Positions 754 to 50,936 of a stretch of DNA of 64,000 nucleotides are shown here, piece after piece (within the stretch, counting starts at the first letter, position 1; each line of letters starts with the position of its first letter). This DNA comes from Octopus vulgaris (lineage: Eukaryota). Below the pieces are notes generated by a model. It was given only the letters and a program-made list of their open reading frames with translations. It ran no database searches and was not told where the DNA came from. The stretch is taken from NCBI GenBank assembly GCA_951406725.2, contig OX597815.1:147064001-147128000 (forward strand). Direction: 5' to 3'. Made by a program: the position numbers and the translations under genes.

Positions 754-839
754 TCCATTACGGCCGTTTCTAGAGACACCTTTAATTAATTAATGAGTAC
801 ATTTTTATACCTCTAAAGAAGCAGTTGTCTTCAGATGGA
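754..839 (-). ncRNA. Minimal type I hammerhead ribozyme (family A)
   Basis: Minus strand: UCCAU-CUGAAGA-[long stem II closing UAGAG/CUCUA]-GAAA-CGGCCG-UA-AUGGA; stem I UCCAU/AUGGA, palindromic stem III, GUA cleavage triplet. Confidence 0.8.
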
Positions 840-1649
840 ACCTTTACAACGAAGAACATTCCAAATAATTTATCATAGTTTAAAATTTGTTTAAATCCCC
901 GGAGCCAACATTTCCAACCTTATGCTGCTATTTCAGTTGACAGAATGAATTTACCAAAAGGAAGTTTTTAGGTTAGTAGTGTATAAGCGACCTCCAGGGA
1001 CAAAATTATATATATATATACTTTAGTTATAAGCAGCTGACGCGTTTGTATTATGTCGTGTAGAAGATATATTGTGGCGATTTTTCTTGCTCCTTAATTT
1101 AATGTGTAAACTTCAAACTGACATCTTCTTAACGTGTCGGTATTCCATAGCAAGCTTTTAGTGTAGTTTATTCCCATTAGATATTTTATCGTTTCAAGAA
1201 CCCATTTACATAGTTCTCAGCGAACTGGATTATTTCCAGATTTTGTTGCAGTTTTAAGTTGAAGTATTCAATATGCCTTAGGGAGACATTGTGACACCTG
1301 CTACTTCATAGCTATTCTAATATTTTTCAAACCGGCAAATTGAGTAAGGTAATTGCCGAACTGGCTATGTTGCTTCATTGTTATATTTCCCAAACATATT
1401 AGTGCTAAAATCTGTTAATACAGATTTTAGACCACAGTCTCCCTTAATATATGAGAAATACACTTTGTCTATATCTCCAAGCATATTGAAGTTTCCAATC
1501 ACACTAAGATATTGATGCAACAATTAGAGGACATGTACGTATAGACACATACGTGTGGTGTACATCCACACAGCCACATACACAGATACGCATGTATATA
1601 TGTGTATAAATATATAAATGGGTGTCTGTGTGCTTGTGTGTGTGTTTTT

Positions 1650-1975
1650 GGCAGGAGGCTCAGTACTTAGAACGTCGGGTTTACAATCACAAGGTACGAG
1701 TTCGTTTGCTGGACCGGGCTGTGTTGTGTTCTTGAGCAAGACACTTTATATCACGTTGCTCCAGTTCACTCAACTGCAGAAACGAGTTTTGAGGTCCCTG
1801 GTGCCGAGCTGTATCGACCTATGCTTTTTCCTTGGATAACATCAGTGACATGGAGAATGGAGCCTGGTGTGCATGAGCAACTGCTGGTCTTCCATACAGA
1901 ACCTTGCCTAGACTTGTGCCTCGGAAGGTGTCTGTCTAGCTACAACTCCATGGTCATCCGTAATCAACGTGGCTC
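1650..1975 (+). mobile_element. Decayed tRNA-derived SINE
   Basis: A/B-box-like head (ggctcagtacttag...gagttcgtttgc) and core ttgagcaagacactttatatcacgttgctccag shared with 5192-5512. Confidence 0.7.
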
Positions 1976-2299
1976 TCTCACTTTCTCTCTCTTTCTCTCT
2001 CTCTCTCAGTATATATATATATATATATATATATAAGTATAAACAAAATGAGCACTTCGTTTAGGCTCAAAATTTCGGCTGTTTCGGCTTGTCGAGTCAC
2101 ATGTCGAACCACCGGTCTCCCAGAAGGCCTTCCGCCAATGATCTGGTTGTTTTGAACACACATGTTGTAAAGAGGAATATTTACTCTCCTACGATGTACA
2201 CTACAGCGACCTGCATATTTTGCCCAGACATGTTGCATTCAAATATGCAAGTAACCATTATATATATATATATATATATATATATATATATATATATAT

Positions 2300-3252
2300 A
2301 TTATATAAAAGGGCTTAGTAAAATAAATTACTTTGCCACATACTGAACTCATTAGAAATAGCAGCTAAAAAAATTTTTTTTAAACTATTTCTAATACTTA
2401 AAGAAAATCTCTCTCATATAGTGTTTGCTCAAGTCAACTCACGAAGGTATGGGGGTAAAGACATTAAAAAATCACAAATGCAAAGGTTATTTGAGAACGT
2501 ACGTTTCTAGATTAGTCAAATCGACATTTCTTTCGTCAGCTCAGAACTCCTTGATTCGGATTTGGGAACACTGAAAGTGGGAGCATACCCTTTTGGCTTA
2601 TTATCACTTCTGAAGATCTGCTCGAACTATCAGTGCTCGCAAATTCAAAATATGCAAGCGAAGAATCTCTGCTCTTCCCTTTCCACCACCGTGGGTTAAA
2701 ATTAGTAAACACTATGTTTTATCGGTAAAAACCGAAGCATTAAATAGAGAGAGATGAATTATAATTTCAACAATTGAGGGTAAAATTAATTAATTATTAA
2801 TCAATTTCACCAAGTATTCAGTATGCAAAGGGACCATTTAAGGCGAATTCAAATTATTACATTATATAAAAGGGCTTAGTAAAATAAATTACTTTGCCAC
2901 ATACTGAACTCATTAGAAATAGCAGCTAAAAAAATTTTTTTAAAACTATTTCTAATACTTAAAGAAAATCTCTCTCATATAGTGTTTGCTCAAGTCAACT
3001 CACGAAGGTATGGGGGTAAAGACATTAAAAAATCACAAATGCAAAGGTTTAAGTATTAGAAATAGTTTTAAAAAAAAATTTTTTAGCTGCTATTTCTAAT
3101 GAGTTCAGTATGTGGCAAAGTAATTTATTTTACTAAGCCCTTTTATATAATGTAATAATTTGAATTCGCCTTAAATGGTCCCTTTGCATACTGAATACTT
3201 GGTGAAATTGATTAATAATTAATTAATTTTACCCTCAATTGTTGAAATTATA
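2300..3252 (-). mobile_element. Non-coding Penelope-pLTR/retrozyme-like element (family B): 561-bp unit x1.33 plus inverted segment, inside (TA)n
   Basis: Direct repeat 2301-2488/2862-3049 (period 561); 3048-3252 is the reverse complement of 2760-2963; (TA)n on both sides; carries a hammerhead. Confidence 0.85.
2492..2543 (-). ncRNA. Minimal type I hammerhead ribozyme (family B)
   Basis: Minus: UGAG-CUGACGA-[stem II with GUC/GAC]-GAAA-CGUACG-UU-CUCA. Confidence 0.85.
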
Positions 3253-5191
3253 TATATATATATATATATATATATATATATATATATATATATATATTGG
3301 AGATTGATTACAACTTAAAAGATATTTCACTTTCATGCCCTTTAGAAAATGTAGTCACTTTGACTTTGATGAATTGATGTCGTTAGATAATGTGCAATGA
3401 CCATTAGATATTCCAGTCCTGAACCGTAATGCTCTCCTCTTGCTGCGTCGGAAGTGGTGGTCATAAAACTGCTCATATCCTGCTGGTTTGAAGCTTAGCT
3501 CCTCTCTCTTTGAATCTCACATTCTAGTCGCATCTGCCTTTCTGTCTCTTCCTAACACTGCAATGGCTCTCTAGACGTTCTCCAGCCTGACTGGACACAG
3601 AATCTTCTGCAACCAAATATCCAGACATGCAACTTCTTCTTGCAACAAAGCAGAGCTTTCTAGTATTCAGCATTTTCTAATAATTAGTAGGAGACAATGA
3701 TGTCTGAATATATATCTTTTTATTTTACCGTACATATCTGATGCAGACATTATAATTAACGGAAAAGCGAGTTTAAAAAAGACAGGGCATATTAGAAGGG
3801 GTAAAGAAAAGTGTTTCGATTATACGGTCACGGTATGGGGAGTGAGTGCCAAGGAAGTAAACTGTGAGGAGTAATGTGAAACTTGGATGGCAAGGAGGGA
3901 GCAACTGTGAACGTGGTATACATGTGTCAGCAAGTGCTGCCTGTATGTTCGCATACATGTTTGAGTGTGTGTTTGTGTGTGTCTGCATGTCTGTGTGTAT
4001 GAACCTATAACGTGCGTGTATATTGTGTTTCTGCGTGTGTATATAACTGAGTGTCTCCGTTTTGTTTTCCTCTGTGTAGAGGCTATCCGATATTATGTAA
4101 GTACAAGGGCATTTGTGTATATGAAGTTATAGTGTGCGTCTGTACCATATGTGTTTGTACGTGTGTAAATGTGCGTAAGCGCTCGTGTCTGTTTGTGTGT
4201 GTGTGTGTGTGTGTGTGCGTGGTGTGCTGTTTTCTGTTTGTGCATGTGAGTATGAGGCAATTATCATATACTAAATTTCTAGAAAATATTTTCACAGTGT
4301 CAGTAATAGATTGGAGGGGTAATTTTATTATGAGTCTTTCTTGTTTGAATAACCTAGTGTTTCAAGGCAGTTAGAACATACCATCCATAGTTTTTCATAT
4401 CATGAGTAATCATACTTTCCACGACAATGCCGCTTCATATATCAGCATCCAGTATTATTCTTTCTAACAACAGCATTGTGCAGAGAACTTATGTCCTTCA
4501 CATGATACCCCATAGATAGAAAATAACGGAATGATACGTTGGGGCTGCTAAATATGATGCGAGTGACATCCTCAATGTTATTTTCACTACCAAGGTGGTG
4601 TTCCAGCACAACCACGGTCCAATGACTGAAACAAGTAAAAGGATAAAAATATATGTATACTGAGTTCTTTCGTGAACCAGGAATTTGTTGTTATTTGCTG
4701 TTCATGTATTGCAATGGTATACAATCTAAGGTGAGAACTATCTCGTTTGCTGGGTCAAGATAAATTATTCTTGTTATCAATGTAACCATCTACGAGTTTC
4801 TGTTGATAGGCATACAGTTTTTCCTCTGATGACCTGTTTTGGAAGCTCTTTTCCGTGTGGATCCGCGGCCTATCAGTCAAAACATATTCTCTTAGGAACT
4901 TCTTTCAAACCTCGTACTGTTATCTGATTCATGGACGCAACTTTAGCTATAGATACACTTTAACAATTGAAGATTAGCAGGTGGTGTTAAAGGGAAATGA
5001 AGGGATATCCAAAGATTGTTTCAATCGATGTTTAACCTCTGATACTTTGCTATCATTGTATCTATGTATGTATGTATGTGTGTATGTATGTATGTATGTA
5101 TGTATGTATGTATGTATGTATGTATGTATGTATGTATGTATGTATGTATGTATGTATGTATGTGTGAGTGTGTGTGTGTGTGTGTGTGTGA

Positions 5192-50373: not shown

Positions 50374-50419
50374 AACACAACGTTTAGGCTGATACAACCT
50401 CTAGCCTTCATCAGATGTC
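50374..50419 (-). ncRNA. Hammerhead ribozyme, family I inverted copy (GAAA>UAAA mutant)
   Basis: Minus: GACAU-CUGAUGA-AGGCUAG..UCAGCC-UAAA-CG-UU-GUGUU. Confidence 0.7.
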
Positions 50420-50678
50420 TTGGGTAAATTTCGAACCTGGGTTCTCATTCCTAAGGTATTTTTCGTTGGTGTTATCATTATTATTCAGGTCACTGCAATA
50501 TGCCCACGGGCATATGGCGTAGTGGTTAAGAGCGCGGGCCACTAACCCCAAGATTCCGAATTCGATTCCAGACAGTGTCTTGAATAATAATAATAATAAT
50601 AATAATAATAATAATAATAATAATAATAATAATAATAATAATAATAATAATAATAATAATAATAATAATAATAATAAT

Positions 50679-50775
50679 GTACCTTTATCAGACGGGTAGT
50701 CATGATGGGTATATTGGGCTTCGTATATTTTACCCCAGTGTCACTTTGATGGCATGAACTGCTCTCTCACTCAAT
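50679..50775 (+). mobile_element. 3' fragment of the 28840-29220 family nested in the (TAA)n of family I
   Basis: gtacctttatcagacgggta..ttttaccccagtgtcactttgatggcatgaactgctctctcactcaataat with (TAA)n on both sides. Confidence 0.8.
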
Positions 50776-50889
50776 AATAATAATAATAATAATAATAATA
50801 ATAATAATAATAATAATAATAACAACAACAACAACAATGACACCGAAAAATACCTTAGGTATGGGAACCCAGGTTCGAAATTTCTCCAA

Positions 50890-50936
50890 GATACCTGATG
50901 AATGCTTGGAGAGTATATCAGCCGAAACGTTGTGTT
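50890..50936 (+). ncRNA. Minimal hammerhead ribozyme, family I
   Basis: gatac ctgatga atgcttggagagtatatcagcc gaaa cg tt gtgtt; stem II partly decayed. Confidence 0.8.

Follow-up and report, generated by a model that had tools for sequence, protein, structure and literature searches.

Type I hammerhead ribozymes are known from two kinds of animal retroelements. They reside in the terminal repeats of Penelope-like elements (PLEs), with many families per genome in the published account (PMC4209133), and in non-LTR (non-long-terminal-repeat) retrozymes, which are also published (PMC7229834) and for which an origin as non-autonomous derivatives of PLEs has been proposed (Li, Clavereau and Pollet 2026, bioRxiv 10.64898/2026.07.22.740005; hereafter Li et al.). 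In one PLE clade, called Hydra, (TA)n is the insertion target of nearly all families (Craig et al. 2021, PMC8557442). The movement of animal retrozymes is still an open question, with the link to PLEs resting on co-occurrence and on terminal-repeat trees. The present analysis concerns 12 hammerhead motifs in a 64,000-nt stretch of the Octopus vulgaris genome (assembly GCA_951406725.2, contig OX597815.1, positions 147,064,001 to 147,128,000; here called the window and numbered from its first letter). An earlier note, made from the letters of the window, had described them as about nine families of a non-autonomous, self-cleaving RNA system moved in trans by a Penelope-type reverse transcriptase (RT). 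It appears very probable that the hammerheads are of the PLE type, and that the window mixes truncated 3' ends of coding PLEs with non-LTR retrozymes that the same machinery mobilises in trans. The octopus elements are new members of published kinds.

All 12 type I motifs are present in the window sequence at the positions given in the earlier note, and the families are named here by those positions. A descriptor scan returned 10 of the 12 starts at identical coordinates; the motifs at 17168 and 50374 were identified by hand reading outside the scan. The descriptor consisted of the core CUGANGA, GAAA, a paired or palindromic stem III region, UH, and a stem I of at least 4 bp. A previous descriptor that demanded a hairpin loop on stem III found zero matches, and this requirement was then relaxed. 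The core is intact in seven motifs (754, 2492, 8945, 9452, 17168, 47953, and 50890). A long unpaired stretch precedes stem II in 754, and stem I of 17168 has a one-base slip, which is why the strict scan misses it.

Could the motifs be chance matches in AT-rich repeat DNA? The motif is short, and Rfam gives it no score. No hammerhead was found among the 150 of 286 window matches listed, all of which were TA-microsatellite noise, or in three small stretches containing four of the motifs. However, the strict scan found six matches in the window, whereas 100 local dinucleotide shuffles averaged 0.04, and with one core mismatch allowed it found nine compared with none in eight shuffles. Together with the genome samples described below (20 versus 0.2), these controls refute chance as the explanation. 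The hammerhead also has a fixed position in the terminal repeats of coding PLEs, and the probability left to chance is close to nil. Many Rfam matches in the window were to microRNAs; these are microsatellite artefacts, all below the cut-offs among the matches listed.

The count of about nine families holds, as nine inserts carry the motifs with no mutual similarity at E 1e-3. Seven of them adjoin (TA)6 or longer, located 62-251 nt downstream of the predicted cleavage site, in agreement with the earlier observation that most had landed in (TA)n. No (TA)n lies within 700 nt of 754 or 50890.

Two of the nine families are ends of coding elements. The 47953 insertion (47640-48083, plus strand; intact hammerhead at 47953-47995, plus strand) lies between (TA)n runs and is a 5'-truncated 3' end, or pseudo-LTR (pLTR), of an autonomous Hydra-type PLE. 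Over 450 nt it shares 90% identity with both pLTRs of a 6838-bp unit elsewhere in the genome (L163). This unit carries the same hammerhead at each end and has (TA)n on either side. It contains an open frame of 841 aa, an inverted 5' part, and a 3' untranslated region (UTR) of 4 kb that is rich in T and G. A second locus (L164) has the same structure with one frameshift. The 841-aa RT-endonuclease frame displays KWK, DKT, YRDD, CxCX5C, YIG, CxxC, and CxH and has a C-terminal GIY-YIG. Judged by its motifs, target, and pLTR hammerhead, the parent of 47953 is a Hydra-clade PLE. As the clade is described in PMC8557442, the two share RWK/KWK, DKT, CxCX5C, CxxC, CxH, the C-terminal GIY-YIG, the pLTR hammerhead, the (TA)n target, and insertions that are tandem and inverted and bear a tail at one end. 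They differ in length, because the clade is 'generally under 3 kb' whereas the parent of 47953 reaches 6.8 kb, of which 4 kb is 3' UTR. The supplement of the same paper lists a (TA)n-targeting element of Octopus bimaculoides, Hydra-1_Obim, at 2507 bp with no pLTR, and the comparison of the 47953 parent with it is by this listed description.

Intact young PLEs in the genome are candidate helpers for non-coding units. They comprise the 841-aa family, a Hydra-type family of 717 aa whose 2590-bp units stand in tandem and end in (TA)n, and a 781-aa family. The 717-aa and 841-aa proteins are 37% identical, with RWK in the former and KWK in the latter, and the 2590-bp unit falls under 3 kb whereas the 6838-bp parent of 47953 does not. 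The 717-aa family is very young (L128-L132; for example, L129:2221-4371 with its hammerhead at 4570-4632). Its hammerhead core is U4C in all 12 copies read, whereas U4 is present in the older relatives L086 and L066. U4C is reported to lower hammerhead activity in vitro (PMC3088659), so success in this family may go with a weakened ribozyme. The 781-aa element is Neptune-like and young (L166:581-4281, L165, L168, L169), has a terminal repeat of 80 nt, and targets (TA)n; a 479-aa frame upstream overlaps its own. No hammerhead was found in it at one mismatch.

The second coding family, 50890 (50321-51025, plus strand), is not in (TA)n. It is the 3' end of a coding element that we take, from its motifs, to be of the Penelope/Poseidon type, and it consists of a tRNA-like head, an (AAT)n linker, and a hammerhead (50890-50936, plus strand, core intact). 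An inverted copy at the left contains the hammerhead at 50374-50420 (G12U). In four loci (L170, L171, L176, L178), 50890 continues upstream into the end of a GIY-YIG frame. In L178 the frame, read by eye, covers the RT thumb and GIY-YIG, and the 50890 head, with a tail that is partly deleted, comes immediately after it. By itself this frame has no match in Pfam, and against a Pfam-confirmed PLE protein it matches in the thumb (E 9e-13) and the endonuclease (E 2e-4). The parent has a C-terminal GIY-YIG after the RT with no zinc-finger linker. Its endonuclease peptide has 3317 first-look candidates in the genome, and its copies are 86-95% alike in protein. No intact frame was found among the 150 candidates scored of the 3317, the longest being 362 aa. 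The parent of 50890 is an older, decayed family and is probably dead. An unrelated repeat at about 50679-50772 splits the (AAT)n linker of the window copy. This repeat ends in (AAT)n itself, occurs also at 28829-28914 and in L175, and is inserted into the 50890 linker at two separate loci.

Since 47953 and 50890 run upstream into RT/GIY-YIG coding sequence elsewhere, their window copies are 5'-truncated ends of coding elements. Copies joined to RT-GIY-YIG frames, which the earlier note had proposed to look for, were thus found for two of the nine families.

Three other families, 8438, 2492, and 15851, are non-LTR retrozymes. The 8438 insertion (8192-9669, minus strand) lies between (TA)n runs. 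It is made up of a pair of 507-nt non-coding units, one incomplete unit, and a 312-nt inverted end. Its hammerheads are located at 8438-8502 (minus strand, GAAA changed), 8945-9009 (minus strand), and 9452-9516 (plus strand). The 2492 insertion (2308-3248, minus strand) lies between (TA)25 and (TA)24 and contains one non-coding unit of 561 nt together with a partial repeat of 192 nt and an inverted end; its hammerhead (2492-2543, minus strand) has an intact core. The 15851 insertion (15637-16063, minus strand) contains a 352-nt non-coding unit and a 78-nt terminal repeat and ends in (TA)17. Its hammerhead (15851-15895, minus strand) has a changed cleavage U in the window copy that is kept in two relatives. 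The 561-nt and 352-nt lengths come from the terminal repeats in the window and from tandem spacing elsewhere in the genome, where the tandem copies are known from coordinates. The 507-, 561-, and 352-nt units have a GC content of 34, 33, and 41%, respectively, all under the 45-50% ceiling used for retrozymes, and longest ATG frames of 44, 41, and 39 aa when circularised. They fold far better than shuffles, with z values of -7.2, -7.2, and -5.2.

The 507-nt family fits the operational definition of Li et al., which asks for two or more units in succession with a complete type I hammerhead in each. On contig C11 it forms 33 head-to-tail units with an inverted end, flanked by (TA)n. There, 15 of 16 sampled units are identical and carry a variant that is missing from the insertions on C8 and in the window. 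In L075/L076, 17 intact tandem hammerheads of this family were read. Arrays in L077 and L078 contain inverted multi-unit halves within one insertion. A further retrozyme family is present at L078:2100-4770, where a 359-nt unit occurs in five tandem and two inverted copies with seven intact hammerheads, all in one (TA)n insertion. Contigs of three sequencing runs guessed to be RNA, and of one other run, span the 507-nt unit and are uninformative on strand, ends, and circles. One of these contigs is rich in A>G and T>C; RNA editing was considered for it and rejected, as both types and G>A are present.

As far as non-LTR retrozymes are described in PMC7229834 and in Li et al., the octopus units resemble them in being non-coding, low in GC, tandem, and highly self-paired, with one type I hammerhead each and sizes from dimers to long arrays. 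There are also differences. The 507-nt and 561-nt units exceed the range of 150-450 nt given in PMC7229834 and lie within the 51-972 nt of Li et al., the octopus insertions are in (TA)n with PLE-type inverted ends, and circles are a prediction in octopus.

Where do the remaining four families belong? The 754 hammerhead (754-839, minus strand) has an intact core, a 6-nt palindromic stem III, and a long stem II region. It sits in an insert at about 715-1007 (minus strand) whose 3' end has no (TA)n. A second, decayed 754 copy that is absent from the earlier list, 73% identical, lies beside (TA)n at 17897-18014 (minus strand). The 7736 family is a short insert (7685-7885, minus strand) that ends in (TA)22, with its hammerhead at 7736-7821. 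Likewise, 16163 is a short insert (16062-16290, plus strand) that has an inverted left half and ends in (TA)37, with its hammerhead at 16163-16220. The 17168 insertion (17044-17700, plus strand) is ~660 nt long, with an inverted 5' piece and a hammerhead core at 17177, and lies between (TA)25 and (TA)100. Its 5' end recurs ~130 nt before the core, which leans toward a non-coding unit. Inverted arms round 17168 on C28 were considered as a source of RT and endonuclease and rejected, since they hold a gag-like frame instead.

The claim that all nine families are non-autonomous, self-cleaving, and moved in trans draws on the three families of short non-coding units, on the lack of an intact open reading frame in the window, and on the four families with no linked coding sequence in the few copies seen. 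However, 47953 is joined to an intact 841-aa frame and to a once-frameshifted one, and 50890 is joined to a GIY-YIG frame in four loci whose peptide is abundant among first-look candidates. These joins refute the claim for two families, and as a statement about all nine it is very improbable. The term non-autonomous applies to 8438, 2492, and 15851, not to 47953 and 50890.

Family alignments display covariation in the 7736 group and in a 754-like group. Among nine relatives of 7736, six of 22 pairs changed on both sides, a count as high being reached in three of 500 shuffles. In the 754-like group of seven motifs (754 and six relatives), eight of 12 pairs changed on both sides (two of 500 shuffles). 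In stem II, which the scan does not strictly demand, 5/12 and 2/3 pairs changed on both sides. A scan of all loci retrieved gave 28 motif clusters, and in 25 of them the whole stem III region is self-complementary. The G10.1-C11.1 position at the base of stem II is G-C in the 50890 and 7736 families and G-U, U-U, or A-A in others. The two-molecule minimum-energy fold is a double hammerhead in three of the five motifs folded (47953, 9452, and 16163), and the monomer has no stem III.

These features can be set beside the PLE hammerheads covered in PMC4209133. Both have a short helix I, an extra base before stem II, and a palindromic helix III. Both also occur as many unrelated families per genome, mostly as single motifs from truncated PLEs, with opposite-strand pairs 100-700 bp apart. 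In contrast, the main text of that paper includes no mollusc, stem II is often longer in octopus, and G10.1-C11.1 is not constant there. The paper gives 2,000-9,000 motifs per genome, compared with a higher estimate in octopus that was obtained with a different descriptor.

How would these elements move? A tandem copy would be transcribed, and two hammerheads in one transcript would pair as a double hammerhead, because stem III is a short palindrome. This pair, computed as a fold, would be expected to release unit-length RNA, with a lone hammerhead cutting poorly. Short units would then close to highly self-paired circles, as suggested by their computed folds and by circles in other animals. 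A Hydra-type GIY-YIG endonuclease would nick (TA)n, and the RT would begin at a set position, 60-250 nt downstream of the cleavage site; the junctions are visible in the DNA and the chemistry is proposed. An early stop of the RT would leave stubs, and a run round a circle or along an uncut multimer would leave tandem arrays, with an inverted copy closing the far end. These structures are all present, and this would be a plausible route to them. Passage of the RT through the cleavage site would be impossible on a cut linear monomer, which points to a circle or an uncut multimer as the template. Very young non-coding units exist alongside intact young Hydra-type PLEs with a common (TA)n target and insertion signature, and this makes trans-mobilisation and the circle-template model testable.

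Several observations weigh against this account. Five of the 12 cores in the window are altered (7736 G8A, 8438 GAAA changed, 15851 U16.1C, 16163 U4C, and 50374 G12U). Relatives with an intact core exist for all five, and for 7736, 8438, 15851, and 50374 the changes can therefore be attributed to decay of the window copies. For example, G8 is kept in the other eight aligned relatives of 7736, so that among those aligned G8A is confined to the window copy, whereas U4C of 16163 is present in two of three copies examined. Five of the nine families are placed as coding ends or non-coding units, and 754, 7736, 16163, and 17168 stand outside both. At the DNA level, the three short units do not resemble the 3' end of either intact Hydra family tested, so their helper is proposed from the common target and insertion form. 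Clade calls rest on motifs rather than on an RT tree. The covariation and palindromy of scan-picked motifs are partly built in because the descriptor requires stem I and a paired stem III; the 754-like set was chosen by this descriptor, so that its covariation test is partly circular. The computed dimers of 2492 and 50890 (two of five) are not hammerhead folds. Self-cleavage and circles are predictions in octopus, and in the work of Li et al. one of nine predicted Xenopus retrozyme dimers cleaved in vitro. Finally, array growth may have followed insertion, or the assembly may have homogenised the units.

A different explanation dispenses with an RNA circle altogether. Monomers and dimers would land from uncut linear transcripts, arrays would be later satellites formed by unequal crossing-over, and the hammerhead would be mostly an idle passenger. 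Most copies are indeed single or partial, PLE hammerheads cleave weakly in vitro (Cervera 2014, PMC4209133), and satellite-type expansion is discussed by Li et al. The near-identity of the 33 units could also reflect homogenisation or assembly polishing, and the youngest 717-aa family has the activity-lowering U4C in all copies. In contrast, whole units fold far better than shuffles, as retrozyme circles do, and stems that covary between subfamilies argue for a fold under selection. Furthermore, the inverted multi-unit halves in single insertions (L077, L078) fit the copying of a multimeric or circular template at insertion. On balance this explanation is fairly unlikely, and a mixture of coding PLE ends and retrozymes copied by PLE machinery is preferred.

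The hammerhead density of the octopus genome, 2.8 Gb in 227 contigs, is striking and unusually high. It was sampled in forty 10-kb stretches at round coordinates on 26 contigs (400 kb). The sample contained 20 intact motifs in nine of the 40 stretches, compared with a mean of 0.2 in 20 shuffles, and by hand count these motifs represent 13 insertions. A bootstrap over stretches gave 7-37 motifs, which corresponds to ~0.5-2.6 x 10^5 genome-wide. The window has 94 motifs per Mb, about twice the sample mean of 50 per Mb. Of the sampled motifs, 65% lie within 300 nt of (TA)5 compared with 33% of background positions, a figure in which motifs from the same array do not count as independent. The numbers of first-look candidates, not to be taken for copy numbers, are 1373 for 8438, 1697 for 47953, 272 for 17168, 4136 for 50890, 2504 for 2492, and 2866 for 15851. 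The earlier note is right on high copy number and on the link to a Penelope-type RT. A compact hammerhead family with a 10-nt stem II region occurs as short palindromic inserts in (TA)n (L085:1850-2100, L086, L077, L074, L137). It is probably of very high copy, as it was found in two of the 40 random stretches.

Reported counts, obtained with other descriptors, are ~120,000 motifs in axolotl, whose genome is ten times larger, ~9,000 in Xenopus, >6,000 in a coral, and ~5,000 in a mussel. The 2026 repeat annotation of Octopus vulgaris gives 190 Penelope-like families that comprise 6.83% of the genome (PMC13282606). Its main text has no mention of 'ribozyme', 'hammerhead', or 'retrozyme', and its supplement has none of 'ribozyme' or 'hammerhead'. 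Thus, a large ribozyme load is missed by Rfam and unmentioned in the main text of a recent annotation. The 35 genomes in the text of Li et al. include no cephalopod. A literature search found no report of cephalopod hammerheads or retrozymes; the supplements of Cervera 2020 and Li et al., Dfam, and Repbase may cover them.

A separate question is whether 50890 also spreads as a short interspersed element (SINE). The 80-nt head (50502-50582, plus strand) and the AAT run sit between the endonuclease stop and the hammerhead. The head contains a polymerase III A-box and, in most copies, a B-box; the A-box matches in 5 of 13 heads and the B-box in 9 of 13, and the two are 34 nt apart where both are intact. 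It could drive ~300-nt polymerase III transcripts, consisting of head, AAT linker, and hammerhead tail, that the PLE enzyme copies in trans. The boxes lie at the 5' end of this form, and in 5 of 11 distinct loci (window, L043, L093, L112, L177) the 5' junction is at most ~8 nt from the head start. However, 4 of 11 run on into the endonuclease frame, from which it follows that the head belongs to the 3' UTR of the coding element, and 2 of 11 break inside the head. A small hairpin at the head start could itself produce fold-back junctions. ARAGORN called no tRNA in 13 heads even with lowered thresholds, and Rfam called none. The loci are few, and eight of them are top matches rather than a random sample (8 of 40 top matches examined). 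The head may resemble tRNA-Arg. Octopus SINEs named OK, OR1, and OR2 were reportedly described by Ohshima and Okada in 1994, and the 50890 head may be one of them.

Precedent for such an element comes from SMalpha of Schistosoma mansoni, which is SINE-like and has a type I hammerhead, as does the head-plus-tail form of 50890. As far as SMalpha is described in PMC8490949, 50890 differs in that its head lies within the 3' UTR of a coding element of the Penelope/Poseidon type, and in having an AAT linker and a hammerhead predicted to act as a dimer only. Altogether, the SINE explanation is tentative and rather improbable. If the tRNA-headed form is a true SINE, PLEs join the helpers available to SINEs. 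A broader combined picture is likewise speculative, and we would bet against it as a whole. Here, a tRNA-headed, hammerhead-tailed SINE would have arisen in a Penelope/Poseidon 3' terminal repeat and be copied by PLE rather than LINE (long interspersed element) machinery. The genome would hold ~10^5 hammerheads in dozens of families, which would place its load among the densest recorded. Its helpers would be traceable as (TA)n-targeting Hydra elements, and 33-unit insertions would each have come from a single rolling-circle reverse transcription.

The window contains other repeats. The earlier statement that it has no RT/GIY-YIG frame is correct for intact frames, but a 169-bp remnant of a Hydra-type PLE is present at 43451-43618 (plus strand). 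It covers the endonuclease linker with its CxC..C motif and ends in (TA)69, and 138 of 150 scored candidates match it. The larger (TA)n-flanked segment at 42925-43618 was considered as a PLE and rejected, because its first 526 nt are the 5' UTR of an adjoining LINE and the last 169 nt alone are PLE. The LINE is broken (39000-43450, minus strand) and retains remnants of an APE endonuclease and RT. It also has an upstream frame, and (TA)n breaks up its 5' UTR. At 18521-19264, 20023-20104, 23433-23774, and 52456-52695, inverted repeats form structures around (TA)n or (TTA)n with no hammerhead match. Beside 50890, a GC-richer 157-aa open frame (49659-50132, plus strand) has no Pfam match and is perhaps the zinc-finger end of another retroelement. 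Elsewhere in the genome, a 570-aa open stretch with cadherin-like repeats, protocadherin-like by eye, lies 1.7 kb from a Hydra remnant (L069:1-1710, minus strand).

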